DNA of 20,000 nt from Chiloscyllium plagiosum (taxonomy: Eukaryota), in NCBI RefSeq assembly GCF_004010195.1, contig NC_057752.1, positions 3,267,753 to 3,287,752 of the forward strand, in the 5' to 3' direction. The notes beneath the pieces were generated by a model that searched no databases, was not told where the DNA came from, and saw nothing but the letters and a program-made list of their open reading frames with translations. Shown here piece by piece: positions 829 to 19,907 of the stretch. Each line of letters begins with the position of its first letter. Position 1 is the first letter of the stretch. Position numbers and translations under genes: made by a program.

Positions 829-1246
829 AGTCGAGATTACACTGGTGCTGGAAAAGCACAGCAGGTCAGGCAGCATCTGAGGAGCAGGAAAATCGATGTT
901 TCAGGCAAAAGCCCTTCATCAGGAATGAAGGCGGGGAGCCTGCGGGGTGGAGAGATAAATGGGAGGGGGGGGTGGGGCTGGGGAAAAGGTAGCCAAGAGT
1001 ACAATAGGTGGATGGAGGTGGGGATGAAGGTGATAGGTCAGAGAGGAGGGTGGAGCAGATAAGGAAGATTGGCAGGTAGGACAGGTCATGAGGGCGGTGC
1101 TGAGCTGGAAGTTTGGAACTAGGGTGAGGTGGGGGGAAGGGGAAATGCGGAAATTGGTGAAGTCCACATTGAGGCCCTGGGGTTGAAGTGTTCCGAGGCG
1201 GAAGATGAGGCGTTCTTCCTCCAAGCATCGGGTGGTGAGGCCCAGA
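829..1246 (-). mobile_element. Penelope-like element, 5'-truncated (GIY-YIG endonuclease C-terminus plus 3' region with hammerhead motif), 12-bp TSD
   Basis: Minus strand encodes LTTRCLEEERLIFRLGTLQPQGLNVDF, the typical PLE endonuclease end. The pyrimidine-rich 3' region carries a CUGAUGA..GAAA motif. Exact direct repeat TCCAACCTTCAG at 817-828 and 1247-1258. Confidence 0.88.
891..926 (-). ncRNA. Minimal type-I hammerhead ribozyme motif (PLE-associated)
   Basis: Minus strand reads AUUC-CUGAUGA(922-916)-A-GGGC-UUUU-GCCU-GAAA(902-899)-CA-UC-GAUU. Confidence 0.7.
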
Positions 1247-1274
1247 TCCAACCTTCAGCCAAATCAAATTGCTG

Positions 1275-1399
1275 AGGTTTTATTCATCAAGGCATAACCG
1301 TGAGGAGGCTATCCTGAACTTGGATAAGACACTGCTCCAGCATCAGCTGGAGTATGACAACCAGTTCTGGGTGCTGTACTTTGGGAAGAATGTGTAAGG

Positions 1400-1433
<34 letters not shown>

Positions 1434-1470
1434 AGAGTGCAGGGAAGAGTTACTCGAATGGTTGCAGGGA
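1275..1470 (+). mobile_element. Old, degenerate CR1 LINE ORF2 fragment (piece 1 of a fragmented copy)
   Basis: Decayed KTL..QLEY..QFW..FGKNV...RVQGRVTRMVAG motif. A (GA)n tract has expanded inside it. Confidence 0.7.
1403..1430. repeat. (GA)14 microsatellite
   Basis: Direct reading. Confidence 0.95.
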
Positions 1471-1509
1471 GGAGGGACTCATGTTCGAAGGTGGGTCGGA
1501 GAAGTTGGG

Positions 1510-1787
1510 ATAAATGCATAGAAGGCTGGAGAAACTCAGCAGGTCTTTCAGCAGCTGTGCAGACGGAAAGAAAGATGGTGTTTCGGTTTCAATATTGGAG
1601 CCATTATTGGACTGAACCATTCGCTCCGCGAAAAGAGAAACAGAATTAATGTTTTGAGTCCACGATGGCTCTTATAGTGAAATCGAAACACCATCCCCCT
1701 TTCTTTCTGCACAGATACAAAAAGACCTCCTTGACCATTCGATGTCCTTATTTCTGATCTCCAGCATCCGCAGCGTTTTGCTTTTGC
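1510..1787. mobile_element. Degenerate PLE-derived fold-back remnant inserted in the old CR1
   Basis: gctggagaaactcagcaggtc.. on the left and ..tctccagcatccgcag on the right resemble the other PLE termini here. Inverted arms include gatggtgtttcggtttca (~1574-1591) and tgaaatcgaaacaccatc (~1678-1695). Confidence 0.6.
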
Positions 1788-1788
1788 A

Positions 1789-1866
1789 TTGGAGAAATTG
1801 GGACTATTATCCCTGAAGAAGAGAAGGTAGGAGAGGAGATTTGAGAGATGCGTTCGAAATCGTGAC
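1789..1866 (+). mobile_element. Old CR1 fragment (piece 2)
   Basis: Translates LEKLGLLSLKKRR, then (frameshifted) RGDLRDAFEIV, continuing piece 1. Confidence 0.65.
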
Positions 1867-1870
1867 TGCC

Positions 1871-2628
1871 TAGAGTCATACAGCCCGGGAACAGAACCTT
1901 CGGCTCAACCAGTCCATGCTGCCCATTATCCCAAACTAACCTAGTCCCACCTGCCTGCTCCTGGCCCATGTCCCTCCAAACCTTTCCTATTCATGTATTT
2001 ATCCCAATGTCTTGTAATTGTCTCCACATCCACCACTTCCTCAGTAAGTTCATTCCACACACGAACCACCCTCTGTGTGAAAACAAATTCCCCTCATGTT
2101 TTTTTAAAATCTCTCTCCGCTCACCTTAAAAATAGTCTTGAAATCCCCCATCCTAGAGAAACAACAACTACCATTAATTCTATATCTACCCCCATGATCT
2201 TTTAAACCGAATTAAGGTCACCTCTCAACCTCCTACGTTCCAGTGAAAAACGTCCCTGCCTATCCAGCCTTTCTTTCTAACTCAAGTCTTCCAGACCCGG
2301 CAACATCCTGGAAAAGTCGGGGAAAATTACGGCAGGTGCTGGAATCTGTTCTGAAAACAGCAAATGACGGAGATCAGAGCGGGTCGGGCAGCATCCGTGG
2401 AGAGAGAGCAAGCTAGCGTTTTGACTCAAGATGACTCTTCATCAGAACATCCTGGTAAATCTCTTCCAAACCCTCTCCAGATTAATAATATCCTTCCTAT
2501 AACAGGGCGACCAGAACTGGACACAGTATTCCAGATGAGGCCTCACCAATGTCCTGTACAACCTCAACATAACATCCCAACTCCTATACTCAAAGGACTG
2601 AGCAATGCAGGCAAGTGTGCTAAACACA
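1871..2628 (-). mobile_element. CR1 (HER1-like) LINE 3' end, 5'-truncated, interrupted by a 134-bp PLE piece
   Basis: Minus ORF reads [47 protein letters not shown]. The 3' UTR and tail (..tatgactcta) end at ~1871. Confidence 0.92.
2312..2445 (-). mobile_element. Short PLE terminal fragment with decayed hammerhead, 10-bp TSD
   Basis: AACATCCTGG duplicated at 2302-2311 and 2446-2455. Minus strand starts CUGAUGA-AGAGUC-AUCUU-GAGUC-AAAA (GAAA box mutated). Confidence 0.82.
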
Positions 2629-2639
2629 TTTTTAACCAT

Positions 2640-2807
2640 AATGGGAATGTTCTCTCCATTGGGAGAAGAGTCAAGAACCATAGGATACAGATTTAAGGTA
2701 ATTGGCAAAACGCTGACAGGATGAAAAGGTTTTTCACACAGTGAATAGTTACGTTCTGGGGTACACTGCCTGACAGCATGATGGAGGAAGGCAAAGTTAG
2801 GGCATTT
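2640..2807 (+). mobile_element. Old CR1 fragment (piece 3)
   Basis: Frameshifted pieces read SPLGEESRT/IGYRFKVIGK..RMKRFFTQ*IVTFWGTLPDSMMEE..VRAF. Confidence 0.7.
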
Positions 2808-3527
2808 ATAGAGTCACAGAGATGTACAGAACGGAAACAGACCCTTCGGCCCACCACATCTATGCCGACCAGATATCCTAAGTTAATCGAGCCCAATGTG
2901 CCAGCACTTGGCTCATATCCCTCCAAACCCTCCTATTCATATACCCATCCAAATGCCCTTTAAATGTTGCAATTGTACCAGCCTCCACCACTTCCTCTGG
3001 CAGCTCATTCCATACACGCACCATGCTCTTTGTGAAAAAGTTGCCCCTTAGGTCTCTTTTATATCTTCCCCTTCTCACCCTAAACCTATGCCCTCTAGTT
3101 CTGGACTCCCACACCCCAGAGAAAAGGCCTTGTCTATTTATCCTATCCATGCCCCTCATGATTTTATAAACCTCTCAGGTCACCCCTCAGCCTCCGATGC
3201 TCCAGGGAAAACAGCCCCAGCCTCTCCCTGTTCAGCCTCTCCCTGTAGCTCAAACCCTCCAACCCTGGCAACATCCTTGTAAATCTTTTCTGAACCCTTT
3301 CAAGTTTCACAACATCTTTCCGATAGGAAGGAGACCAGAACTGCACGCAATATTCCAACAGTGGCCTAACCAATGTCCTGTACAGCTACAACATGACCTC
3401 CCAACTTCTATACTCAATGCTCTGAGCAATATAGGAAAGCATACCAAACGCCTTCTTCACTATCCTATCTACTGGCGACTCCACTTTCAAGGAGCTATGA
3501 ACCTGCACTCCAAGGTCTCTTTGTTCA
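2808..3527 (-). mobile_element. CR1 (HER1-like) LINE 3' end, 5'-truncated
   Basis: Minus ORFs read [37 protein letters not shown] and MRGMDRINRQGLF..SRTRGHRFRV..WNELPEEVVEAGT, followed by the 3' UTR. A small internal duplication cagcctctccctgt lies at ~3218-3246. Confidence 0.95.
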
Positions 3528-3565
3528 AGAGGGAATTTGACTGTTGTCTGAAAGGAAGAATGAGT
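3525..3565 (+). mobile_element. Old CR1 fragment (piece 4)
   Basis: FKREFDCCLKG continues the AF of piece 3 (AFKRELD motif). Confidence 0.55.
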
Positions 3566-3769
3566 TGAGTAATTTCCCTGTCAATCATGCCCAAAGTCAG
3601 CCCAGCTTCACATGATTGGGATTAGTTTTCTCCACATCCTTTGTATTATCCTCCACTTACTATATTTTGTCAGCAAAATAATCCTGCTGTACTTGGGAGA
3701 CTCTACAACAGTTTCAGGCACCAGACGGGGTATTCTGTAAATTAAACTGAGAACAACTGCCTTCGATTC

Positions 3770-4774
3770 AATATTTAACACTGGAGCCCCCCAGGGGTGT
3801 GTACTCAGCCCCTACTGTACTCACTGTATGCCCATAACTGCATCACCAAATACCAGACTAATGCCATTTACAAGTTCGCTGATGACACCACCATAGTCGG
3901 TCGAATCTCAGATGGCGACGAAACAGACTACAGATGTGAGGTGGAAGACCTGGAAAAATGGTGCACTGAGAACAACCCAGCTCTCAATGCTGGCAAAACC
4001 AAGGAACTCATTATTGACTTTCGGCAGGATGTTACTCATGCCCCCCCTTCTCCCCCACACATTAACAGCACAGAGTGGAACCAGTGGGGAGTGTCAAGCT
4101 TCTGGGAGTGGGTCATCCACAACAAGCTTTCTTGGACTCTTCATGGGGGCGCACTGGTTACAAAGGCCCAACAACGTCTCTTCTTCCTCAGGCAGCTGAG
4201 GAAATTTGGCATGACGGCGAATACCCTTGCCAACTTTTATAGGTGTGCCATCGAGAGCATTCTGTTTGGATGTATCACTATCTGGTATGACAACTGTACC
4301 ATACAAGATCAGAGACGGTTACAGAGAGTGGTGAACTTAGCTCAGACAATCACAAGGGCCAACCTCCCATCAATAGAATTCATCTACCAGGCCACTGTCA
4401 AGGAAAGGCAGCCAGCATTCTCAAAGATCCATCCCACCCTGGCAATGNNNNNNNNNNNNNNNNNNNNNNNNNNNNNNNNNNNNNNNNNNNNNNNNNNNNN
4501 NNNNNNNNNNNNNNNNNNNNNNNNNNNNNNNNNNNNNNNNNNNNNNNNNNNNNNNNNNNNNNNNNNNNNCTGTTGTTAGAATACTGAATGGACTCACAAA
4601 CTCTTAACGTTCACCTGTACCTGTGTTTTGGTTTTTGCCGCTGTTTACCTATTATTTACTTATCTATTCTACTTAACTCTGTGACCTGCCTGTATTGCTT
4701 GCAAGACAAAGCTTTTCACTGCGCCTCGGTACACATGACAATAAATTCAATTCAATTCAACTCAATTCAATTCA
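3770..4774 (+). mobile_element. Rex1/Babar-like non-LTR retrotransposon 3' end (RT domain fragment, frameshifted) with (TTCAA)n tail
   Basis: NTGAPQGCVLSP/LLYSLY..YKFADDTTIVGRIS..KTKELIIDFR..KAQQRLFFLRQLRKF..FYRCAIESIL. AATAAA at 4740-4745 is followed by (TTCAA)n at 4746-4774. Confidence 0.9.
4448..4569. other. Assembly gap (122 N)
   Basis: Run of N. Confidence 1.
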
Positions 4775-5064
4775 TTGCTTACATAGCATTGTCAATATCT
4801 CCTCCTATCTTTTCTTTGGATCACCAGCCTTGAATTCTGCATGTTAAAATGCTGTGGCCACTTACACATGCAAACAACGCTGTTGGTATTCTGTGCACTG
4901 AGGTAAACCCACTTGGATCGCAGATAATTTCAATTATTCAAGCCGAAGAGGTCAATGAAAGGGCTGAGGTTGCACAAGGGAAAATAAACCTGTCAAGGTT
5001 CCATAATTCGATGGCTGGAATTCACAACATTTGCTTGTCTTTTATTCCAGCAAGGTCTGCACCT

Positions 5065-5490
5065 CCGTACAGAGAAGATCATCGGATCTGTCTGCCCTCC
5101 ATTACACACATTTACACCACGCTGCATCCACAAGGCCACACACCCCTCACTCAAACTCTTCTCCCTCCTGCCATCTGGCAGCAGATACCAGAGCATTCGG
5201 ACTCTCACAGCCAGACTGCGCAATAGATCCCCCCCCCAGCCCCCACCCCCCCCGCGGGCCCCCGGGCCATCACGTTCCTTCATACTGTATCATCACACTA
5301 TTCCATTTGCAATTTTTGGACGACTTTTCAAATTGCTGCTAATACGATGTTTTATTAATGCTCATTCACTGCTACATTTTAATTTGTCCACCGCTGTACC
5401 TATTGTCTTGTCAGAAATTACTGTGCTCTCTTGCATGTTTTGCATTTCTCTCTGCAGTTTATGCTGCTCTGTGTATGACTGTACTGTCTG
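5065..5490 (+). mobile_element. Rex1/Babar-like LINE 3' fragment, degenerate
   Basis: Frameshifted pieces EKIIG / LPSITHIYTT / HPSLKLFSLLPSGSRYQSIRTLTARLRN, followed by a T-rich putative 3' UTR. The right boundary is uncertain. Confidence 0.7.
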
Positions 5491-5604
5491 AAAAATCCTG
5501 CTGTGACATTTTGTTGATTGAGGATGATTGTCCTCAGGCTTTGACTTTTTATCTCTCTGTCTCTCTCGCTCTCCAGCGACTTGTCTGTCCATTTCTGACT
5601 GCTT

Positions 5605-6220
5605 ATGCTTTCCTTTATTGGTCAGAGTATTGAGTACAGGAGTTGGGAGGTCATGTTGCGGCTGTACAGGACATTGGTTAGGCCGCTGTTGGAATGTTGC
5701 GTGCATTTCTGGCCTCCTTCCTGTGGGAAGGATGTCGGGAAAGGGTTCAGAAAAGATTTACAAGGATGTTGGAGGGTTTGAGCAATAAGGAGAGGCTGAA
5801 CAGGCTGGGGATGTTTTCCCTGGAGCGTTGGAGACTGAGGGGTGACCTTATAAAGGTTTATAAAATCATGAGGGGCATGGATGGGATAAATAGACAAAGT
5901 CTTTTCCCTCGGGTGGGGAAGTCCGGAACTAGAGGGCATAGGTTTAGGTGAGAGGGGAAAGATATAAAAGAGACCTAAGGGGCAACTTTTTCACACAGAG
6001 GGTGGTACGGGTATGGAATGAGCTGCCAGAGGAAGTGGTGGAGGCTGGTACAATGACAGCATTTAAAAGGCATCTGGATGGGTTTATGAATAGGAAGGGT
6101 TCAGAGGGATATGTGCAGAGTGCTGGCAAATGGCACTAGATTAGGTTAGGATATCTGGTCGGCATGGATGGGTTGGGCCGAAGGGTCTGTTTCCATGCTG
6201 TCCATCCCGATGACTCTATG
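5605..6220 (+). mobile_element. CR1 (HER1-like) LINE 3' end, 5'-truncated
   Basis: [72 protein letters not shown]. The 3' UTR ends atgactctatg. Confidence 0.95.
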
Positions 6221-6769
6221 CTCATCTCTGATGCTGCCAAATCGTGACTTTCTCCATCCCTCTTGTCACCACCTCCTGAATTAGCCACATGATGTGTTTG
6301 GCAAGAGAGGGAGGAGTTGGTTGAACAGTGGCATGTCCCAAGATGCTGGAGTTGAAACAGGATTTCTTAATCCCCGAACAGACTTCAGAGGACACTCACT
6401 TCAGTGCACATCAGATATGAATGATGGAAGCTTTTCCATTTTAATTAAATAAAGTCTGGTCTGATTCACCAAAGAAGCGTATTAAATTAAATAATTGATT
6501 AGACACAAGTATCGTCAGGTTAAACAAATACAAACAGAAGGTAATTAATAACAGGAGTATTCCTTAATGCCTTTGCATTTCCTAAACGGATCTGCCATTG
6601 CGATTATTAATGCTTTACTGAGCCAGGGTTGGAGTAATATGCAGGCGAGAAATGCATCACCGTTTGTGCACTGAGTAAACCACCATCACAGAGATGATGA
6701 GACCCCTCTCTCTCACCTTGGGTCATCAGTCTGTCAAATTCTCTCCCCCAGAGACGTCGGGCCACCCAA

Positions 6770-6913
6770 TATGATAGATCGACAAGGAGGTCAAAAGGTT
6801 AAAGGGGGGGATGGATAAGATGTGGAGTTGAGGCCACAGTCAGATCAGCTATGATCTTATGAAATGGCAGAGGGGGTTCGAGGGGTTGAATGGCCTACTT
6901 GCTGTCCTAATTC
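6770..6913 (+). mobile_element. Older CR1-type 3' UTR remnant
   Basis: gtggagttgaggccacagtcagatcagctatgatctt..aatggcctact..cctaattc resembles a CR1 3' terminus. Confidence 0.6.
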
Positions 6914-6942
6914 ATAGAGTCGCAGAACGTGAAAGCAGAGAA

Positions 6943-7016
6943 ATATTATTAAATTGGAAACAAAATTATAAGAATGTTACCGGGTCTGGAAGGTTTGCGT
7001 TATAAGGAGAGGCCGT
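6943..7016 (+). mobile_element. Short CR1 ORF2 piece (part of the left arm of an inverted repeat)
   Basis: [20 protein letters not shown]. It is the reverse complement of ~7515-7598. Confidence 0.75.
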
Positions 7017-7730
7017 ATAGAGTCATACAGCACGGAAACAGACCCTTCGGTCCAACCCGTCCATGCTGACCAGATATTCCAACCCAATCTAGTCCCACCT
7101 GCCAGCACTTTGCACATATCCCTCTGAACCTTTCCTATTCATATACCCATCCAGATACCTTTTAAATGCTGTCATTGTACCAGCCTCCACCACTTCCTCT
7201 GGCAGCTCATTCCATACCCGTACCACCCTCTGTGTGAAAAGATTGCCCCTTAGGTCCCTTTTATATCTTTCCCCTCTCACCTTAAACCTATGCCCTCTAG
7301 TTCTGGACTCCCCAACCCCAGGGAAAAGACCTGGTCTGTTCACCCTATCCATGCCCCTCATGATTTTCTAAATCTCTGTAAGGTCACTCCCTCAGCCTCC
7401 GACGCTCCCTGGTAAAAAAAGTCCCAGCCTATTGTGGGATTAGTTTAGTTTGGGAACATGGTCTGCATGGACGGGTTGGACCGAAGGGTCTGTTTCCATG
7501 TTGTATGACTCTATCCGGCCTCTCCTTATAACGCAAACCTTCCAGACCCACTAACATCCTTGTAATTTGTTTCTGTATGCTTTCCAATTTAATAATATCC
7601 TTCCTGTAGCAGGGAGACTAGAACTGCATGCAATATTCCAAAAGTGGCCTCACCAATGTCCTGTACAGCCGCAACATGACCTCCCAACTCCTGTACTCAG
7701 TGCACTGACTGACGAAGGCAAGCAAACCAA
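7017..7730 (-). mobile_element. CR1 (HER1-like) LINE 3' end, interrupted by an ~80-bp opposite-strand CR1 tail
   Basis: Minus ORFs read [36 protein letters not shown] and MRGMDRVNRPGLFPGVGESRTRGHRFKV..SAGRWD. Confidence 0.92.
7434..7514 (+). mobile_element. CR1 extreme 3' tail fragment
   Basis: gtgggattagtttagtttgg..ggaccgaagggtctgtttccatgttgtatgactctat, inserted at a CTAT microhomology. Confidence 0.85.
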
Positions 7731-8029
7731 TCGAGGGGTGATACTGGGACGGGGGAGGCGTGTCAGATGGTGAATACTGGGGCGAATTGTGGAGGCAAAG
7801 GGCAACATGGAGTAGCATGGGACAGAAAGGCAGCTGCACACGCCAGAGGCAAGGCTGTATGGAGCAAGAGGCCTATGAGTTGAAGAGAGATAAAGCCACC
7901 AGCCACATGATCAGCAGACTTATGGGTGATGGGTAGGCTAAGAGTTTGAATTGAGGAAACACACAGCACGTTGCATATTTGTCTGGGAAGGCTCCCCCGA
8001 AGAAAGAGAAGCCTCGAAACAACACCAAG

Positions 8030-8200
8030 AGTGAGAATGTCAGTTGAAGTGAACAGTGTGGATCCATTTAAGGGCAAGCTGGACAAGTGTGTGAGACAGA
8101 GAAGGAAACAGAGGCAGACAATGACAGGTTTAGATGAGGGAACTTGGCAAGTCGCTCAACTGGAAATGTAAGCACTAGGGTAAAGTCACAACACCAAATA
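8030..8200 (+). mobile_element. Old CR1 3' remnant
   Basis: VEVNSVDPFKGKLDKCVR motif. Confidence 0.55.
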
Positions 8201-8229
8201 GCCTGCATCTGTGCCATACCTTCTAAGTA

Positions 8230-8730
8230 TGAAAGAGTCCAGAAAAAATTTACAAGGATGTTGCCGGGGTTGGAGGATTTGAGCTATAGGGAGAGGTTGA
8301 ATTGGCTAGGGCTGTTTTCCCTGGAGCATCGGAGGCTGAGGGGTGACCTTATCGAGGTTTATAAAATCATGAGGGGCTTGGATAGGGTAAATAGACAAGG
8401 TCTTTTCTCTGGGTTGGTGGAGTCCAGAACTAGAGGGCATAGGTTTAGGGTGAGAGGGGAAAGATTTAAAAGGGACCTGAGAGGCAACCTTTTCACTCAG
8501 AGGGCGGTGCGTGTATGGAATGAGCTGCCAGGGGGAGTGGTGGAGGCTGGTACAATGACAACATTTAAAAGGCATCTGGATGGGTATCTGAATAAGAAGG
8601 GTTTAGAAGGATATGAGCCAAATGCTGGCAGGTTCGACTAGATTGGGTTAGGATATCTGGTCGGCACGGACAGGTTGGACCCGAAGGGTCTGCTTCTGTG
8701 CTGTACAGCTCTCTGATGCTATGACTCTAT
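8230..8730 (+). mobile_element. CR1 (HER1-like) LINE 3' end, 5'-truncated
   Basis: Open frame [55 protein letters not shown]. The 3' UTR ends atgactctat. Confidence 0.95.
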
Positions 8731-8814
8731 AAATGGTGAAGAGTGGGACTTTGTACCTCAGAGAGATAGCCTACCCATCAGCCATGGGCCAATGATCATG
8801 TGGATGGTGTCAGT

Positions 8815-8955
8815 GGTGACTCTGTTGGTAGTACGCTCGCCCACTCCAGTTCAAGTCCCACTCCAGAGAGTCGAGCTTGAAAATCCAGGTGGCTCTGAGG
8901 GAGTGCAGGGTGCTCTCGCCCTTGAGGGTAATGTTAAACGGAGGTTCCTGCTTTC
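8815..8955 (+). mobile_element. DeuSINE/SacSINE-like tRNA-derived SINE head, degenerate
   Basis: gttggtagtacgctcgcc..gttcaagtcccactccagag..ctgagggagtgc..gttaaacggagg. Homologous to the minus-strand copy at 13034-13192. Confidence 0.6.
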
Positions 8956-9197
8956 TCAGGAGCCCGTGGCACTGTGGTCTGCTCCCCCTCTCATTTGCTG
9001 CCTTTATAACCGGAAGGGTGGTGGCAAAGCGAAGGAGGTTGGGGGCAGGTCGTACAATTTCGCTGCAAACTCCAAAGGCTGGGGATCCACAAAGAATGTC
9101 AACAAAGACTACAAGTACCCTCCACCCATACATTGACAGCAGTGGCACTGGGCTATTACCCAGAATGCTTCAGATGTAGACAGTGGTACGATTCAGA

Positions 9198-9436
9198 GTA
9201 ACATAGAAAATGGGAGCAGGAATAGGCCATTCGGCCCTTTGAGCCTGCTTCATCATTCAGTATTATTGATCCTGACCTTTCAACTCAGTCCCCTGTTCCT
9301 GCTTTCGCTTCCATATCCTTTACTCCCTTTAGCCCGAAGAACTATATCAAACTCCCTTGTGAAAACATTCAATGTTTCGCTGTCAACAATTTTGGGTGGC
9401 AGAGAATTCCATCTCTGTGGGAAGACATTTCTCCTC
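9198..9436 (-). mobile_element. Older CR1 3' end
   Basis: Antisense tail aacatagaaaatgggagcaggaataggccattcggccc and ..ggcagagaattcca (WNSLP on the minus strand). Confidence 0.75.
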
Positions 9437-9725
9437 GACGCAACAGCATATGGTTGAGGGCATTTGGCAGAGGATCAAGATTGTTCTCAATCAGATATGT
9501 ACTAAATGATTCAAATAAGCTTCCAGCAGCCACTCTTTCCCTTTTATGTGTCTCTCCTTCTCTTCGCAATCCTGTTCCTACCCCGTTCCTTTCTTTAAGG
9601 CGTCTTCTGACATTTTCCACCCGAGAGGCCATTTTGGTTTCTTTGGTCATGGGATGCCATGCTGCCAACCCCAGTTGTTTCTGAACTGAGTGGCTGGCTG
9701 GACAGCTGAGAGTCCACCCCATTGC

Positions 9726-9915
9726 CAGAGATAGAGATTGCTGGAAAAACTCGGCTGGGTGGGGGGGGGGGGGTGTCTGGCAGCATCAGTGGAGAGAAAT
9801 CGGGGTGAGTGAGCTGAAAGGTTCACTCTGATTTCTCTCCACAGATGTTGCCAGACCCCCCTGCTGAGCTTTTCCAGCAATCTCTAGCACAGATTTGCAG
9901 CATCCACAGTCCTTT
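9726..9915. mobile_element. PLE-derived fold-back (inverted terminal fragments)
   Basis: Arms 9732-9808 and 9823-9886 are imperfect reverse complements. CATTGC flanks both sides (9720-9725, 9920-9925). Confidence 0.75.
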
Positions 9916-10054
9916 CACACATTGCTATGGGTCTGGAGTCACATGTAGGCCAGGCCTGGTAAGAGAGGCAGATTTCCTTCCCTTCAAGAACACGGGTGAA
10001 TTAGACAGCCTCTGACAATTCAATGCCAGACTCTTTGATATTTTCCCTAACCAA

Positions 10055-10115
10055 TGTGGTGCTATTACACCCCTCTGGAGCAGGTAGGACTTGAACTCAG
10101 GTCTCTGGCTGAGAG
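10055..10115 (-). mobile_element. tRNA-derived SINE head fragment
   Basis: cctctggagcaggtaggacttgaac matches the copy at 13722-13800. Minus-strand B-box is gttcaagtcc. Confidence 0.55.
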
Positions 10116-11029
10116 TCACTCTCGCTGCAGTCCCTTTTGATTGCAAATCTATTTATTGACTGTTAAATTCCATGAGCTCCCTTGGTGGGATTTGAACCCA
10201 CGCACTCGAGTATGGGTCCAGCCCTATGGATGACCAGCCTAGTGATATTGCCATTATTGCTTACATCTGCGAAGCACGTTCTTGGCCGTAAAATGCGTCC
10301 AAGACCTCCCAAGGTTGCAAGGTCTTTCGTTGCAACATGACACAAACAACCCCAAACTCATTTCCCAGACAGCTCCTTGGCCTCCAAGCATCTGCTGATT
10401 TACTGCTCCCTGTGCTGGGAAGATTCACTAGAGATCAGCACGCTCAGCTCTGCCTGAGGCTGACATTCTGTATCGGTGACAAGGCAATGTGTCGTGACAC
10501 CAGTTTCTCACCAGAACATTCAGTCAAAAAAAAATGTGTTTTTTTCTGCTCTGCAGCCCAGCACTGACGAAACAGAATAGCCTTGCAGCTCCCTCTGTCC
10601 CCAGGGAGACAAGTCAACACCTTCTGCGCTTTTCAAACACTGATCTATGCTCTTGTGCAGATAATTCCATTTATGAAAAAGAACCAAAAGTAATTTCAAG
10701 AAGGTTACAGACTGCAGCAAGTAAGCACATTTCTGATGAACTTGCACATCCTTTTTATTAAATCGCTGTTTATCGCATCTTATTGTTGAGAGAATATTTT
10801 GAACAGCTCCACACTATTAACTCCATATTCTTGGACACAAGGCTGAGGAAGGGCAAATTTTCACTTTCACTGTGAGGGGATGAGGGTAAGTTATTGGTCT
10901 GAAATCGTCACATTTTCGTGAGGTACATGAACACAGCCATCGTGCCCCATTTATCGCGATCTCGGTCCTCCCCGCTCACCTTTCTTGGTTATGTTCCACG
11001 GATGCTCTGCACTATCACTACTTCTTGCA

Positions 11030-11365
11030 ATCTCCATTTTGAAAATTTTCATTTCACCTTTTTTGAGGGGAGAAAACTCCAAACCGTTTCTCTTTGCACT
11101 CGACATCACCCCTGACAAGCCTGGCTCAAATTTCCAGGTTGTGATCTCTTGTTTACGATTCCATCCATGGAGAAGAAATCATTTCTCTCTGTCTACCTTG
11201 TCAGAGCCTTTGAATCAGTTAACACCTTGTTTAGAGGATCCCTTAATCGTCTCACCTAAAGGGAGTCCGAGTCCAGCCTAGCAACATAATTTAACCTTCG
11301 ACTTAAAGTCATTCTCGTGAATCTTTCCAACAGATCTGAACAGGACAATGTATCTTTCCCTAAAA
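11030..11365 (-). mobile_element. Highly degenerate CR1 fragment
   Basis: Minus strand reads ..LGKDTLSCSDLLERFTRMT.. The plus strand has CR1-antisense motifs (tttctctctgtctaccttgtc). Confidence 0.5.
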
Positions 11366-11477
11366 TCTGTGAGATTTTTATGAGATCCCTTCTCTTGTGC
11401 GTGCAGCCAAGACAGACAGAAGACAAACTTGCCCTTCTATACACAAGCTTTACTTTTTTTACGCTTAGGATATGTTT

Positions 11478-12200
11478 TGTTATGAAGGTATAAGGGGTAC
11501 TGTACCTTTAAGAGAGCTGGAAGCTAGCAAGGTCTTAGAGAGGCACAGACAGTCCGGAACAATGTCACGTTTGGTCAGAACAGCAAGCACCGGCTAGGTT
11601 GCTATGAGACCAAAACAAATTCAAATGTGGCCATCTGTATAAATTATGCCCCAAGATACCAAACTCCAATCGAGTGTGAATTTAGTATTTTAACAATATC
11701 AAAACCAATGAAACGATCTGGTGGTTTGGGGTATAAGTATCAGACAATCTGAATAGTTAGTCAGAGAGAGAACTTCCAAAAGACTAACAGATGTAAGCTG
11801 CAAATGAGAACTCTCTGAGAGGTACCTGGCTGGAGAAGGAGTTTGCACAGAGAACAAACATCAACACCAACCTGGAGAGCAAATCTACTGAGGAAGATAC
11901 AAAGAGCAGATTCGCCAACTGGTTTTGAAATTTGAATTTTTCTGTTAGTCTTAATCAGGGGTTTTATTGGACCAGCAAGGGGAAGATAAAAGGTAGGTTT
12001 AGGTAAACGAGTTATAAATAGTTGTTAATTAACTTCTCTGTTAGACATTTAAAAAAAAAAAGTTGTTAATTTTTACTGTAAATACTGACTTTTGGGGTAG
12101 TTCATTTCCTCTCGAATTTTCACAGATTACAGCACGGGGTAAATCTTTTCTGTGTTGCTGGTTTAAATTAGCAGAGGGAGGTTTACCTCGTGTCATAACA
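11478..12200 (+). mobile_element. Solo LTR (723 bp), probably Ty3/Gypsy-type
   Basis: Perfect 8-bp terminal inverted repeats TGTTATGA (11478-11485) and TCATAACA (12193-12200). The 4-bp flanks GTTT/GTAT are a TSD with one mismatch. Internal CCAAT at 11705 and TATAA at 11732. No coding capacity. Confidence 0.8.
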
Positions 12201-12496
12201 GTATGTATCATGTGAGGAGTTCGCCAAATTCACCTTGTCTCCACGAGCAGGAAATAAATCTCACACTGTGCAGGCTAAAACTAGAATTACAATTTATTCC
12301 CGAGTAAGATTATATAAAAACCTCCTCAGAGAAGTTAAGTATCACATGCTGAGATCTTCCATTACCTCAGGCCATTCCAAAGTCCTTTCCAGCTAATGGA
12401 GCACTTTGTGAAGTGTAGTCACATCAATTTGTGCAAAGCAAGATCCCACAGCTAGCGGTGTGCTAAGGACTAGATAATCACTTTTTAAGTGACAGT

Positions 12497-12798
12497 TATA
12501 GAATCCCAACAATGTGCGAAGGGACCATTTGGCCCGTCAAGTCTGCACTGACCCTCCGAAGAGCAGCCCCCCTATCCCTATATTCCCCTGTGGCTAACCC
12601 ACCTAGCCTGCGCATGACAGGACAATTTCTCATGGCCAATCCACCTTAAGCTGCACATCTTTGGACTGTGGGAGGAAACCAGAGCACCCGAAGAAACCCA
12701 CGCAGAGAATGTGCCGACTCCACCCAGACAGTCGCCCAAGGGTGGAATTGAACCCGGGTCCCTGGTGCTGTGAGGCAGCAGTGCTAACCACTGAGCCA
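12497..12798 (-). mobile_element. HE1-type SINE (V-SINE)
   Basis: Minus strand has A-box tggctcagtggttagc, B-box ggttcaattcc, a central gggtttcttcgggtgctctggtttcctcccacagtccaaagatgtgcag domain, and a CR1-derived tail. Confidence 0.92.
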
Positions 12799-12894
12799 AT
12801 ATGCTACACGTTGGTTGGGGAATGATCAGTGGGTTATATGGAATCATTTACAGACATCTAAAAGGGCAGATTGAGTTTTAGCTTAACCCAAAAG

Positions 12895-13033
12895 GTAGAA
12901 GTGGGTACTGCAGATTAGAGTCAAGATTAGAGTGGTGCTGGAAAAGCACAGCAGGTCAGGCAGCATCCGAAATCCTGCTCCTCGGATGCTGCCTGACCTG
13001 CTGTGCTTTTCCAGCACCACTCTAATCTTGACT
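12895..13033. mobile_element. PLE-derived mini-element forming a perfect 52-bp hairpin, 12-bp TSD
   Basis: 12919-12970 is the exact reverse complement of 12982-13033. Flanks are TTAACCCAAAAG (12883-12894) and TTAATCCAAAAG (13034-13045). Confidence 0.88.
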
Positions 13034-13249
13034 TTAATCCAAAAGATGGCACCTCCGACAGTACATGGATCCCTCCGTACTGGTGTACCAGCCTTGGTAT
13101 CTACTCAAGTTTATAGAATCTTGCAGAATAAGATTTGAATCCCATTTTGAGACTTTTTGACTCAGGGCAACGAGCACTGCCAACTAAGCCAGTGCCAGGA
13201 CCTGAATTGCACATATCCTCAAGAAAAACGACTCGATAATTAGCTTGCA

Positions 13250-13680
13250 TGGTGCTGGGAATGGCCCCGATCTGCCCGCAAGGAATGAGACAGCATGCCA
13301 GTCCGCAAGCCTGGCTTCCAGCACGGGCATGAACGGGCCGCGAACCCAGGCTGCTCACTCCGAGGGTCCACACTTGGTGTCCAAAGCCCTACTGGCGGCC
13401 CACTGACCCGCGCGGAGGTGCTGCTCACGGAATCCCTTACTGACTTTGCAGCATCTGGGCAGCCTCCTGTCAGACCGATCTGCCGTCACATTAACCAGCA
13501 TTCCCTCTCCTTGGCCGATGCGGCATTTCCTGCCCCCCCCATCGGAAAAAGAAGAAGGGAATCGGAACGCACGCTTAATACCGTAACCAGCCCCGCCTTC
13601 CCGGTGTGGGAGCCGCTGGTGCTTATCAAAGCGGGGATGGTGAGCCTGTTCAAAGTGCTTAACGTAAGCAGTTAGCTAGG
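13250..13680. promoter_or_regulatory. CpG-rich island-like unique segment (function unknown)
   Basis: Hand count of 27 CpG in 13261-13680. GC-rich, with no repeat recognised. Confidence 0.4.
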
Positions 13681-13721
13681 GCACCAAGGCCTTAATAAAA
13701 CAGGAGATTTGATTTTTCCGA

Positions 13722-13800
13722 ATCACACCTCTGGAGTAGGTAGGACCTGAACGCCGATCCTCCCAGCCCAAGGGTAGGGACAATACCACTGCACCACAAG
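13722..13800 (-). mobile_element. tRNA-derived SINE head
   Basis: Minus strand reads cttgtggtgcagtggtattgtccctacc..gttcaggtcctacctactccagagg (A and B boxes). Confidence 0.65.
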
Positions 13801-14024
13801 TTCTCGCGCCAGTGCAGCTCCAGCTTGCGTGGAGTCCCACCATATATTATTCCAAGGGAGACGAGGCGACATGGTAGCTGAAGTGGACACAGACCCCACT
13901 GAGGCTTCCTTCTACAAGTCAGGTGACATTCACCTTGCTGCAGGGGCAAGCAGAGGGGAAGCTGCAGATCCAAACTCCCAGCATGCCTCACCAGCACACC
14001 AGGCTGCCCGCTCAGAGTGCGACC

Positions 14025-14482
14025 TTGGAAAAAAAAATGTCCTGAAGAAATTTATAAGGACGTCACTCAGCGATCTGAGTTATAGGGAGAGGTTGGACAA
14101 GCTATGACCATTTATCTTTCGAGTGTAGGAGACTGAGGGGGACGTCTTACAGAAGTGGCTCAGATCATGCGAGGCATGGATAGGGTGATTCCCCAGGGTT
14201 GGGGAGTCGAGGACTGGAGGGCATCAATTTAAGGTGAGAGGGGAACGAATAAAAGGGAACCTGAGGGGCAACGCTTTTGCACAGAGGGTGGGACGCATAG
14301 GGAATGCGCTGCCAGCGGAAGTGGTTGAGGTGGGTACATTAACATCATTTAAAAGGCATTTGGACAAATACATGGATAGGAAAGGATATGGGCCAAGTGC
14401 AGGGAAATGGGGTTAGTGTGGATGGACATTTTGGTCAGCATGGACCAGTTTGGACAAAGGACTTGTCTCCATGCTGTAGTCC
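14025..14482 (+). mobile_element. CR1 LINE 3' end, moderately diverged
   Basis: KKFIRT..DLSYRERLDKL, then MRGERIKGNLRGNAFAQRVGRIGNALPAEVVEVGTLTSFKRHLDKYMDRKGYGPSAGKWG, then the 3' UTR. Confidence 0.9.
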
Positions 14483-14489
14483 CTTAAGC

Positions 14490-14810
14490 TTTCAGGGAGT
14501 TGGAGAAGCTGCTCTCTTTGGTGCAAAAGGAGGGGAGATCTGATTAAGCCGTGCAAGATTCAGATTGGTCTTTGACAAGACAGGCAAAAATTTCCATTTA
14601 CAAGGTCAGTGGGAACGTAGTTGAGAGCTTTGGCTGATATAACGATGAAGATTTTGACACGTGTTAACGCCCTAATGCCCGCTGCCTGAAGGGGGTGAAG
14701 CAGAGACCATCAATGGTCACAGAAGGAAATTGGAAACTGCAGAGCTCTGGGGCTAAAATCTGGGACTGAAACTGAGTGGCTGCTTAACAGGGAGTCAGCA
14801 CAGACTCGAC
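14490..14810 (+). mobile_element. Very degenerate CR1 3' remnant
   Basis: Scattered motifs ttggagaagctg..ggggagatctgatt..gctgcctgaagggggtgaagcagagaccatc..aggaaattgga in CR1 order. Confidence 0.45.
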
Positions 14811-14877
14811 TCCAATTTGCTTTCTTCTGTGTTCGGAATCTACCACCACGCATCCATCCCTGAGCTGAGAACAACTG

Positions 14878-14962
14878 CAACGAAAACAGAAATTGCTGGA
14901 AAAGCTCAGCAGGTCTGTGAGGAGAACTCACATTTCAGGTCCGGTCACCCTTCCTCAGAACG
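14878..14962 (-). mobile_element. Short PLE terminal fragment with hammerhead-like core, 11-bp imperfect TSD
   Basis: Flanks GAGAACAACTG (14867-14877) and GAGAACAATTG (14963-14973). Minus strand reads GUU-CUGAGGA(14958-14952)-A-GGGU-GACCGG-ACCU-GAAA-UG-UG. Confidence 0.72.
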
Positions 14963-14979
14963 GAGAACAATTGATGCAG

Positions 14980-15605
14980 TCAGTTTACAGCTGTACCATG
15001 GAAAGCATTCTATCCAGATGGATCATGGCTTGGTACGGCAACTGCTCTGCCCAGGACAGTGAGAAACTACAGGGAGTTGTGAACACAGCCCAGTCCATCA
15101 CCCAAACAAACCTTCCATCCATTGGCTCCATCTACACTTCCCACTGCCTCGGGAAGGCAGCAACATCATCAAAGACCCCTCCCACCCCGGTTATCATCTC
15201 TTCCAACCTCTTCCATCGGGCAGAAGATACACACAGACCAACAGATTCAAGAACAGCTTCTTCCCTGCTATTATTAGACTTCTGAATGGACCTAGGATGA
15301 AGTGAGGACTGCAGTTGCTAGAGATCAGAGTCAAAACGTGTGGTGCTGGAAAAGCACAGCCGGTCAGACAGCATCCGAGGAGCAGGAGAGTCGATGTTTT
15401 GGGCATAAGCCCTTCATCAGGACCTCTCCAATTTCAAATCTAATGTTGATGTTGCTTTGTGCACCTCCTGTACAGCCGTAACCGTGTTTGCCTCACTCTG
15501 CCTGCGATCTGTGTGTCTTTGTATGCTACGTTCTGCCTGGACAGCATGCAAAACAAAATTTTTCACTGTACTGAGGTACATGTGACAATACTAAATCAGA
15601 TCCCA
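14980..15605 (+). mobile_element. Rex1/Babar-like LINE 3' end, interrupted by a PLE piece
   Basis: YSCTMESILSRWIMAWYGNCSAQDSEKLQGVVNTAQSITQTNLPSI..HCLGKAA / TNRFKNSFFPAIIRLLNG. The 3' UTR ..ttttcactgtactgaggtacatgtgacaata resembles 4710-4745. Confidence 0.88.
15294..15419 (-). mobile_element. Short PLE terminal fragment with decayed hammerhead, 6-bp TSD
   Basis: GGACCT at 15288-15293 and 15420-15425. Minus strand reads CUGAUGA-A-GGGC-UUAU-GCCC-AAAA-CAUC (GAAA>AAAA). Same family as 829-926. Confidence 0.85.
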
Positions 15606-15790
15606 ATAAATCACCAGGTGTCCAAAGTAGAAACCCAAATCTCTTTTCCACTCGCAGCAACATTCAGCATAAGTCCCACTCAGTCAGGATGGAAATGCCA
15701 CCAGTACCTGCTGCTGTCCAAATGCATTTCAAGGACATAGGAGGTTCCATTCTCTGTGCTGGTGGTGGTGAGTTTTCTCTTACTGTGCAA

Positions 15791-16083
15791 GCTACGGTGG
15801 CTCAGTGGTAGACACTGCTACCTCACAGCACCAGGGACCCAGGTTCAATTCTAGCCTCGGGCGACTGTCTGTGTGGAGTTTGCACATTCACCCCATGCCT
15901 GCGTGGGTTTCCTCCCACAGTCCAAAGATGTGCAGGTCAGGTGAATTGGCCACGCTAAATTACCCATAGTGCTCGGTGCACTAGGCAGAGGGAAATGGGT
16001 CTGAGTGCGTTGCTCTTCGGAGGGTCAGTGTGGACTTGTTGGGCCGAAGGGCCTGTTTCCACACTGTAGGGGAATCTAATCTA
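15791..16083 (+). mobile_element. HE1-type SINE (V-SINE)
   Basis: A-box ggtggctcagtggtag, B-box ggttcaattc, central domain, and tail ttgggccgaagggcctgtttccacactgtagg..(aatct)n. Confidence 0.93.
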
Positions 16084-16954
16084 CGGTTTTGGTGAAATAG
16101 CGAAGACGGACGTCGGATAAGGCTTTCTGCGTGCCCAGTTTCCGGGTCAGAGACGGTTAACAAGCTCACGTCACCGAGATTGGGTCAATCTGGATTCCCA
16201 ACAGGCATTTGCTGACTGGAAAAAGAACCAACAATGTCGGGAGGAGTTGACCACAAACCTCAAGGGCTCAGAGAAGTAGCTTGCTTCTTAAGGTCACAAT
16301 GGAGATCATTTTCCACAATTCACTGCTGCTCGGTCAATTATTATATTTATATCAGATAGCGCCCAGGTCAAATTACGTTTTAAAATAATCATTTTTTTTT
16401 GTCTTCATTTGCTGGCAGTGAATGTGATGTGAAGGTCAGTGTTAATCCTTGATTAAAAGAAACCTACTTTCATATAACTTTCCGTTCAATCAACAGAAAT
16501 TGGTGACAGATTCTTTTATCATTGTTTGCCATTTCCAAAAACAGCTTTGTCGACTTGAGCTGACCGGAGAGACGTATTGAACACTCCCTCCTGAGTTACT
16601 TTTTGTAGCAACAGCAATTTTAACTTCTGAATCTTTGGAATTCAAGAGAAATCCCCCTGAATCCACCTTTCGGTTATCAAGCCCTCTGCAGAGCCCAGTA
16701 GCTCAGTCTGTATTGACCTAAGTGCCTGATGCACTGCCAGAAATCACTCCAGCTTAATCCAGGTATCACGTCTGAATCAAACTGGTAGATACCACAGGCT
16801 AAGCACACGACTATACTTCAGCGAGGTATCATGCACTGTCACTTGGTATGTTGAAGTGCGTTGAAAGCATGACAGGAGCACAGGCAAGATTTCCAATTTG
16901 TGTCTGAGATAATGCATTGCTTGACTGCACACACAAAATATCAAATTCATTTAA

Positions 16955-17080
16955 AAGTCTGGAATGAGGTGGAGGCAGGGTCAATTTACACACTCAAGAG
17001 GCAATGGGACCATTATCTGGAAAAGGAAGGGCGTGCAGGGTTCCAGGGAGAAGCATGGGATGAGTTGCTCATTCGGAGAC
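16955..17080 (+). mobile_element. Old CR1 3' remnant
   Basis: VWNEVEAGSIYTLKRQWDHYLEKEG motif. Confidence 0.55.
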
Positions 17081-17368
17081 TGAAAGGGTTGTCTGACTGG
17101 AACAATTCACAGAAAAACATGGCTGGGTTGCTATCCCACTTCTCCCCAGTCATTTCACACCCAAATGCCAAAGCTGGCACAGAAACGCATTTTCAATGTG
17201 TAATCCAACAGGTTTATTTGGGAGCGCTGCTCCTTCATCAGGTGACCAACACAGTCATTCTGAAAGATGAGAGACTTAACAAACAATCCAGGTCTTTTTC
17301 AATGTATCATTTCAGTTACTGAACCTTTTGCTATAAATTCAGTGTCTTATGATCTTCTACTCCACAAC

Positions 17369-17398
17369 CAACTGATGAAGGAGCATCACTCCGAAAGC
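17369..17398 (+). ncRNA. Hammerhead ribozyme motif, truncated by SINE insertion
   Basis: CUGAUGA(17372-17378)-A-GGAG-CAUCA-CUCC-GAAA(17393-17396)-GC, then the SINE. Confidence 0.65.
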
Positions 17399-17689
17399 AG
17401 ATCCCCTACAGTAAGGAAACAGGCCCTTCAGCCCAACAAGTCCACACCGACCCTCCGAAGAGCAACCCACCCCAACTACTGCACCTAACATTATAGGCAC
17501 TTTAGCACGGTCATTTCTCCTGGCCTGCACATCTTTGGACTGGGGGAGGAAACCGGAGCACCCAGAGGAAACCCGCACAGACATGAGGAGAATGTGCAAA
17601 CTCCACACAGACAGTTGCCCCACGGATGGAATTGAACCTAGGACCCTGGTGCTGTGAGGCAGCAGTGCTAACCACTCAGCCACCGTGCC
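17399..17689 (-). mobile_element. HE1-type SINE (V-SINE)
   Basis: Minus strand starts ggcacggtggctgagtggttagcactgctgcctcacagcaccaggg..ggttcaattcc, with a complete tail. Confidence 0.93.
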
Positions 17690-18219
17690 ACTCAGTGAGC
17701 CACAGTGCTTCCAAATAAATCTACAACCTAGTGTTGTGTGATTTTTAACTTTGTACACCCCAATCCAACACTGGCATCTTGAAATCATATTTGCAGTTAA
17801 GACTCTGACCGTACCACTTTGTTGAGGCAATCACTGTTTGAAAAGCCCGTTTTGAGAAACCAGAATTCTTACCGGGAGTGACTTACCCACCCTTGCAGTT
17901 TATTCTCGCTTGTGCCCCACCAACCCCATAGCCTTCATTGTTGACTTTTTTTGACCAGCTCCCTATCTGTTGACTTACATCCAAGTCTGCACTGCTTCCC
18001 TGACATGTCCCCACACTGTAGCTCATGAATTGCTTCAAACAATGCCTCAACTAATACCTGAACACAGTCCCTCTCAGTTAAACACTTGATGTTAATGTGC
18101 AGCTGGCAGTAGACCACAGGTGAGATACAGGAGGATCCGCGTGGACAGTGCGTTGTCATTGTGGACAAAGTTAAAAATCCCATAACACCAGGTTATAGTG
18201 CAACAGGTTTATTCTGAAG

Positions 18220-18254
18220 CACGAGCTTTCAGAGTGCTGCTCCTTCATCAGGTG
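18220..18254 (-). ncRNA. Minimal type-I hammerhead ribozyme motif (best-preserved copy)
   Basis: Minus strand reads CAC-CUGAUGA-A-GGAG-CAGCA-CUCU-GAAA-GC-UC^GUG. Stem I is CAC/GUG, and palindromic AGCU takes the place of stem III. Confidence 0.78.
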
Positions 18255-18255
18255 G

Positions 18256-18417
18256 TTGTGTGTGAGAGTGTTTGTGTGTATGTATGTGTGTGAGAGAGAG
18301 AGTGTATGTGTGTGAGTGAGAGCGAATGTGTGTGTGAGAGTGATGTGTGAATGAGAGTGTGTCTGTGTGCGTGTGAGTGAGTGAGAGCATGTATGTATGT
18401 GAATGAGACTGTGTGAG
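18256..18417. repeat. Imperfect (TG)/(GA) microsatellite
   Basis: Direct reading. Confidence 0.9.
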
Positions 18418-18549
18418 ATTCCTGATGAAGGACCTTTGCCTGAAACGTTGATTTTCCTGCTCCTTGGATGCTGCCTGACCTGCTGTGCTCTTCCAGCACC
18501 ACTGTAATCTAGACTCTGATTTCCAACATCTGCAGTCCTCACTTCTGCC
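18418..18549 (+). mobile_element. Short PLE terminal fragment beginning at a hammerhead motif
   Basis: AUUC-CUGAUGA(18422-18428)-A-GGAC-CUUU-GCCU-GAAA(18442-18445)-CG-UU-GAUU, then ggatgctgcctgacctgctgtgctcttccagcacc..tctgcagtcctcactt. Confidence 0.85.
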
Positions 18550-18660
18550 TGAGAGTGTATGTGTATGAGTGAGAGTGTAAGTGTTTGTGTGTGAGAGAGA
18601 GTGTGTGTGTGTGTGAGAGTGTGTGTGCGTGTGTGTGTATGTATGTGTCTGTGTGTGTGT
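18550..18660. repeat. Imperfect (TG)n microsatellite
   Basis: Direct reading. Confidence 0.9.
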
Positions 18661-18779
18661 CAGTGCAGCTCCTGTTACCTGTACAACACAAAGTGACTAA
18701 AAAGGAATATGTGACTCCTGCCTACTCCTGCCCAGCCAGTGGGTTTCTCATTGCCAGCTGCTGCATTTTCATTTTCAAC

Positions 18780-18784
<5 letters not shown>

Positions 18785-18818
<34 letters not shown>
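18785..18818. repeat. (GA)17 microsatellite
   Basis: Direct reading. Confidence 0.95.
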
Positions 18819-18820
<2 letters not shown>

Positions 18821-19907
18821 AAGCCCTCTGAAAGCTAGTGCTTCCAAATAAACCTGTTGGACTCTAGCCTGGCGTTGTGTGATTTTTAACTTTGTCCACC
18901 CCAGTCCAACACCGGCATCTCCAAATCTTGTCATTGTGTGCACGGGTGTCAAGATTCCAAGTAACCCAACAGCAAAGAAAAAAACAATCGGTTTTATTTT
19001 CTGGGTTTAAATGATACACACAGCGCCATTCACTAACTGAATGGCAGCTCTTGTAAACTTGACTGATTTCAGTTTCGATTAATCCAGCTGCTGATTCGGA
19101 GCTTTAATAGTTCGAGGGAGATCTCAATTGTGAATGGTGGTGACATTAATGGATGAATCCTTAATGCATTCCTTCGTCTGCTATTTTAACACAGAGATTA
19201 TGCAATTTGTCAGACTCAAATGTTCAGTGATCTCTTGCCACGAAGTGTGTTTCCTCAGAATATTAACTTTTATCTAAGTTATTCAGATTGGAAAAGGATG
19301 GTTAGTGAGGGCGACTTGTTTAAAGCATAGCCTATACTCACAGGAGCCTTGGACGTTGGTTTGCTGTGCTATGTAGCAGGAGAATTGGTGCTCAACTGCA
19401 TGGCTTATCACTAGTCACAACTCATTCGTTCTATTAAAACTAAATTCCCAGGTATAACTCTATACACAGTCACCAGGAATGTAGTACATAGGTGGCAAGC
19501 TGTAAAAGTCAAAGTGGACTCAGATGTAATCTTGAAAACAATAAGGCGCCAGAAAGGGTCTCAAATCAGACACAGCCTTTGGTCTTGATCGCTGGTGAGA
19601 ACAATCACAGCAAGCACAATTTTGGGGTGTATTACACTGGATGCTCAGAAAGTACAGTGGCTCCCTGCATTCAGCCTCGTTAGGATTACATTTTCACTCC
19701 CTTCCCAAAACCCGACCTGCTGGAAATTTCCCCGGAAGGTGGGTTTTAATTCTGGCCAAGTTGCAGTTGGACATGTAACACCTGCAGACCGCCGAAGCAG
19801 CCACAGGGGCAGCTGAGGTGAGGGCGGTTTGGGTTAACAGGATCTGACCCATCAATCCAGCTCGAATCAAAACAGGCCAAGGCTCATTTCTCATATCCCA
19901 TCACCCA

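Follow-up and report, generated by a model that had tools for sequence, protein, structure and literature searches.

The 20-kb window analysed here, a 20,000-nucleotide stretch of the 3.56-Gb assembly of Chiloscyllium plagiosum, carries nine hammerhead ribozyme motifs that are very probably decayed minimal type-I hammerheads in the pseudo-long terminal repeats (pLTRs) of 5'-truncated or inverted copies of Penelope-like elements (PLEs), likely dead as ribozymes and reflecting in their number a genome-wide load. Both the motif and its host are already known, and the window itself is ordinary. The original prediction had listed nine motifs from several PLE families, and all nine are present in the window sequence at the positions and on the strands it gave; a BLAST count of sequences homologous to 220 hammerhead copies from the genome, excluding loci centred on the window, recovers the same nine sites exactly and no others. 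Furthermore, a scan of the window for CUGANGA and GAAA boxes flanking a stem of at least 4 bp finds four matches, against a mean of 0.13 in 40 dinucleotide shuffles. By sequence the motifs fall into four families: A (922-, 15420- and 18422+), B (2445-), C (14958-) and D (17241-, 17372+, 18251- and 18817+).

Hammerhead motifs and their host element

A strict descriptor of the minimal hammerhead (CTGANGANG-N9-17-CGAAA-SS-TH) matches 165,984 sites in the whole genome, compared with 179 for the reversed pattern, and a relaxed form that allows for CpG decay matches 241,322, compared with 1,091. Three exact 32-mers alone occur 15,500, 30,393 and 2,154 times. The suggestion that copies decay through CpG was borne out by this genome-wide search, in which the C11.1-G12 CpG has undergone a C-to-T or G-to-A change in 75,338 of the 241,322 relaxed matches.

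The fold was assessed in 211 distinct strict matches, a set in which many loci were fetched by motif and which is therefore not an unbiased sample. Stem II reaches at least 4 bp in 186 of them, though the descriptor fixes its first pair only, and its sequence differs between families (GGGC/GCCC, GGAGC/GCUCC, GAGU/ACUC and GGGUC/GACCC). Both sides of stem I likewise change between families (CAC/GUG, GCA/UGC, GCU/AGC, GUU/AAC and UUC/GAA), the commonest type having a U-U at pair 3, and the family types contain both the CUGANGA and the GAAA box as well as the UH triplet. The covariation originally proposed is apparent when each stem is compared with 5000 shuffles, with minor decayed types retained even though they count against pairing: pairing is 0.83 across eight stem II types versus 0.47 in shuffles (3/5000 reach 0.83) and 0.85 across nine stem I types versus 0.50 (1/5000 reach 0.85), figures that overstate independence because the families are related, and so are not probabilities. 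The short palindromic stem III is equally general: positions 15.2/16.2 are palindromic in 209 of the 211 matches (CG 143, GC 66, GG 2, CC 0), although the descriptor permitted all four.

The copies in the window have drifted from these types. None of the nine matches the strict descriptor, every copy departing at least once from its family type, and two (18251- and 18422+) match the relaxed one; on this sequence evidence they are likely dead as ribozymes. An Rfam search of the window returned no hammerhead family at E≤10, and the hammerhead is not the minimum-energy structure of any window copy folded as a monomer, a result that carries no information about a motif believed to require a dimer. 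Dimers among the window copies are unlikely, because no direct tandem of hammerhead units occurs among them, the inverted arms lie on opposite strands, and stems I and III are not the same in family A as in family D.

Features of the host open reading frame (ORF) suggest a Neptune-type, endonuclease-bearing (EN+) PLE. The motifs of families A, C and D are on the sense strand, downstream (3') of the end of an ORF that encodes a Cys linker and a GIY-YIG nuclease. Copies of the family A end run upstream to varied lengths into an ORF with reverse transcriptase (RT) motifs, a CX4CxxC linker and the GIY-YIG domain, and the DKG motif is visible at one locus (L137); atlas neighbours of the ORF carry HTH_animal, GIY-YIG and RVT_1 (best score 0.96). 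Families C and D share the linker and nuclease end of A, with the motif seen at the 3' position only. In family A the tail continues into the leader, with an ATG about 160 nt after C3, and at locus L189 a single element with an internal deletion carries a hammerhead at each end; together with the leader walk, this gives a pLTR-ORF-pLTR layout. Three points weigh against this identification: the putative clade was assigned from the linker and other ORF features, Pfam returned no family for the 395-aa ORF fragment P0002, and the search for a family B ORF gave a match at one of ten copies, 1.1 kb upstream and probably a separate family A copy, so that B was not tied to an ORF. An intact full-length ORF was not recovered because assembly gaps lie inside the elements; ten loci with long open frames were retrieved, and the frames listed for them cross N gaps.

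Several other observations concern these elements. L189 (1450-2400) and L173 are internally deleted family A elements in which the leader and ORF start are joined to the ORF end at differing junctions, and at L189 two direct hammerheads stand about 780 nt apart across a gap, a layout compatible with a dimer. A Thr/Pro/Ala-rich low-complexity stretch of varying length lies between the N-terminal region and the RT of the family A ORF (L266:1000-1400 and L272). A fifth family, E, has an 18-nt stem II region and three stem I variants; it occurs at L045, L101, L128, L160 and other loci, not in the window, and gave no ORF match with the family A query. At L128 (240-980), units of about 49/98 nt from a hammerhead-family tail form a tandem array preceded by one decayed motif.

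Ends of the copies

The 5' ends of family A copies cluster at the start of the hammerhead. Ends were taken from 110 unselected stretches (1,056,479 non-N bases) and counted relative to the hammerhead core, with the cut site at +28; 142 copies were found, nine adjoining a gap or edge were dropped, and 133 were used with references that ended at -150. Fifty of the 133 begin at -12 to 0, with a mode at -4 (13 copies), nine begin at -100 to -13 and 15 further up, and the remainder start inside or after the motif, some of them being tails of related families. There is no pile-up at the cut site, where 2/133 begin, both of them arms of one fold-back. In a pattern-selected set of 90 copies, ten of which adjoin gaps and five pairs of which are arms of one insertion, 46 begin at -11 to 0 (A1 10/30, A2 22/30, D 14/30), many of the copies having a target-site duplication (TSD) or an inverted arm. 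The 3' ends are bimodal in families A, D and E, at two positions about 35-40 nt apart that correspond to the known 'tail'. Three public sequencing runs also contain loose ends before -4 with unrelated flanks (142 reads; 176 and 48 contigs).

Helix I begins at position -4. In families A, B and C the base there is also the A of a sequence that resembles the initiator consensus, YYANWYY; the fit is poor in families D and E. A splice acceptor was considered as the cause of the -4 ends and rejected for family A, which has no AG there, the nearest lying near -18 where few ends fall; families B and C have CAG at -5 to -3, which is compatible with an acceptor.

We tentatively suggest that the hammerhead-plus-tail stubs end at the 5' start of the element RNA, and arise when RT starts on uncut RNA, within the tail that belongs to the leader copy, a reading that we hold at somewhat less than even confidence. 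The element RT would start in the tail, on RNA not cut by the hammerhead. If it primed on the leader copy, it would run only about 130 nt before reaching the RNA 5' end, likely the first base of helix I (-4), and this short run could leave a stub consisting of the hammerhead and tail. The motif might then be kept at active master elements, cutting there as a dimer or with protein help, while genomic copies would decay neutrally, fastest at CpG. We are more doubtful of a stronger version, in which transcription starts on the first base of helix I, the ribozyme acts as a cap-proximal switch, and priming of RT on the uncut leader is frequent enough to make stubs the main product, leaving several hundred thousand ribozyme fragments that record the RNA start. 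If true, the hammerhead cut would take the first 32 nt off the mRNA. The function of PLE hammerheads has been called unclear (PMC8557442, in the parts of the article covered); the copy ends described here speak for a template of uncut RNA and single out one position, -4.

Results from the other families and from RNA count against reading the stubs as a record of the RNA start. Among unselected family D copies, six of 44 begin at -12 to 0 and 13 within the motif, and one of 24 family E copies begins within 20 nt of the motif, with no pile-up; at the cut site (+28) family D shows no footprint either (1/44), a count of low power. Reads of the public runs contain no place where many molecules begin or end, and because no RNA start site was seen, the start is one that we infer. 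In one RNA run (X19, species identity not shown) the motif is covered on both strands and 96-97% of reads continue into unrelated sequence, as expected of passengers in host transcripts; another run (X20) had no reads covering the motif.

Alternatively, the element identity may be the same and the pile-up at -4 may arise at the DNA level, either because the 5'-ATT preceding the core is where the GIY-YIG nuclease cleaves the new copy or because the cDNA joins its target by ATT microhomology. Family A has ATT at -4 to -2, where the mode lies, families D and E are without ATT and their peak is weak or missing, and ATT was found to be the most cleaved motif in the pLTR in the covered parts of PMC11167929. 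Such an origin nevertheless seems unlikely, since a second family A ATT at +29, which RT would reach first, shows no peak (1/133), and pattern-selected family D copies still begin at -9 to 0 in 14 of 30 cases.

It is far less probable that the stubs are an independent non-autonomous element, resembling a short interspersed nuclear element (SINE) or a retrozyme, that spreads via hammerhead-cut circular RNA. Short units with their own TSDs are indeed common, and non-LTR retrozymes are described as deriving from pLTRs and as occurring in one chondrichthyan (10.64898/2026.07.22.740005, parts covered). However, the core is complete in the stubs and would be lost on cleavage, the cut site forms the junction with host DNA in none of the 133 family A copies (the two at +28 being the single fold-back), the window contains no tandem unit, and the stubs match the ends of ORF-bearing copies within a continuum of longer truncations.

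Density and layout of the insertions in the window

The window holds nine motif fragments, compared with 230 in the 110 sampled stretches, or 4.35 per 20 kb (3.2-6.2 by subset), a sample in which small chromosomes are thinly covered and one dense 200-kb block is included. The window thus has about twice the sampled mean and 1.5 times the density of its own flanks (6.08 per 20 kb), and nine or more fragments are reached by 4% of random pairs of 10-kb stretches. The original description of about nine per 20 kb as striking was therefore an overstatement: the count falls towards the top of a background that is ordinary across the genome, and it does not mark a local cluster. Extrapolated from the sample, the genome would contain roughly 0.6-0.8 million fragments. 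It is scarcely credible that the window represents a special cluster of working ribozymes used by the host, for although the excess over the sampled mean would favour it, no motif is strict, two are relaxed against an expected 1.36 per 20 kb (P=0.39), the flanks are dense as well, and the motifs lie on both strands in separate insertions, one of them split by a SINE.

The nine motifs belong to seven insertions (Table 1), because 17221/17369 and 18220/18817 are the paired arms of inverted insertions. Four of the seven are hammerhead-plus-tail stubs. TSDs of 6-12 bp bound five (12, 10, 8, 6 and 11 bp); none was found for the family D insertion at 17197-17790, and that of the family A insertion at 18418, which sits in a microsatellite, is uncertain.

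Table 1. Hammerhead-bearing insertions in the window and their parts
Feature	Positions	Strand	Remarks
Family A 3' fragment: GIY-YIG ORF end, 3' untranslated region (UTR), hammerhead, short tail	829..1246	-	12-bp TSD at 817-828 and 1247-1258
Family A minimal hammerhead, C3 at 922	891..926	-	G-U closes stem II; stem III palindrome lost (CA for CG)
Family B stub beginning at hammerhead, C3 at 2445	2312..2445	-	AAAA for GAAA, one stem II mismatch; 10-bp TSD at 2302-2311 and 2446-2455
Family C stub beginning at hammerhead, C3 at 14958	14875..14962	-	Stem III and cleavage triplet decayed; 8-bp TSD at 14867-14874 and 14963-14970
Family A stub beginning at hammerhead, C3 at 15420	15294..15424	-	AAAA for GAAA; 6-bp TSD at 15288-15293 and 15420-15425
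Family D inverted arm: 5' half of hammerhead joined to part of tail	17197..17244	-	
Family D 3' UTR and hammerhead, C3 at 17372	17245..17398	+	Core intact up to GAAAGC, then interrupted
SINE-like repeat, about 305 nt, at UH position of family D hammerhead	17399..17703	-	Sequence, inverted repeats
Family D tail, remainder after SINE-like repeat	17704..17790	+	
Family D left arm, most nearly intact motif, C3 at 18251	18164..18260	-	G-U closing pair, AGCU palindrome, UC triplet, 3-bp stem I
Family A stub nested in D insertion, C3 at 18422	18418..18551	+	One A-C mismatch in stem II
Family D right arm: 3' half of hammerhead and long tail	18817..18927	+	One insertion with left arm; 11-bp TSD at 18153-18163 and 18928-18938

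The SINE-like insertion at the UH site of the 17369 motif is a single event that may be due to chance; we take the repeat to be an HE1-like SINE, and other repeats of the window presumably belong with the HE1 SINE and the CR1-type long interspersed nuclear elements (LINEs) of elasmobranchs, which they resemble. Beyond the nine motifs, 12895-13038 is a fold-back made of two family A tails, which has lost its hammerhead and is bounded by a 7-bp repeat, and Rfam gave only sub-threshold microRNA-type matches on the window's fold-backs, including this one. Two further inverted insertions, at 9728-9915 and 1505-1790, consist of family B/C-like tails in which traces of the GAAA box survive. Fragments of another, LINE-type RT end occupy 3776-4750, which holds a 122-base N gap, and 14970-15480, which hosts the family A stub at 15294-15424.

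Comparison with known systems

The papers compared here are cited for the parts covered. Literature searches, which reached few subscription papers, listed no work dealing with hammerheads of shark PLEs or with 5' ends located at helix I; shark motifs or counts may be present in the supplement of the retrozyme preprint. PLEs are reported to have expanded in whale shark introns, in an account whose covered part leaves ribozymes unmentioned (10.1101/443036).

The host resembles the Neptune-clade EN+ PLEs (PMC8557442) in its DKG-motif RT, CX2-5CxxC linker (the Cys linker being a mark of Neptune/Nematis) and C-terminal GIY-YIG, as well as in heavy 5' truncation, inverted 5' copies, an optional tail of 30-40 bp and TSDs. 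Animal non-LTR retrozymes (10.64898/2026.07.22.740005) share a non-coding, pLTR-derived unit with a type-I hammerhead, but they are tandem repeats with a hammerhead in consecutive units, whereas the window copies are solo or inverted.

The anole Poseidon element PAc (Frangieh et al. 2024, PMC11167929) also has its hammerhead at the pLTR-ORF junction, and two internal RT start sites give it two 3' ends, with no sign in the covered parts of cut RNA as template; internal RT initiation on uncut RNA was reported there, and the anole motif needs protein and is dispensable for insertion in vitro. The PAc ORF begins inside stem II, whereas the family A ATG lies about 160 nt downstream, and the pile-up of 5' ends at helix I seen here is not described for PAc in those parts. 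Drosophila Penelope, for its part, has an internal TATA-less promoter (PMC2377424).

The closest likeness is to the PLE minimal hammerheads of Cervera and De la Pena (2014, PMC4209133), the monomers of which do not cut and the dimers of which cut weakly. Shared features are the core boxes, the extra base between 9 and 10.1, the G10.1-C11.1 pair, palindromic 15.2/16.2 without a stable helix III, a short helix I, many families per genome in mostly single dispersed copies with some close opposite-strand pairs, and a location in pLTRs at both element ends, as at the family A locus L189. Helix II differs, having 4-5 bp in families A-D and 7-8 bp in the Schistosoma families. The main-text parts of that survey name no shark, though its supplements may hold shark motifs or counts. 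With its own descriptor it counted about 4,000 motifs in coelacanth and about 9,000 in Xenopus; the descriptors differ from those used here, but some 166,000 intact-core and 241,000 CpG-tolerant motifs in one genome are far above these numbers and make this genome a large natural covariation set for minimal hammerheads.

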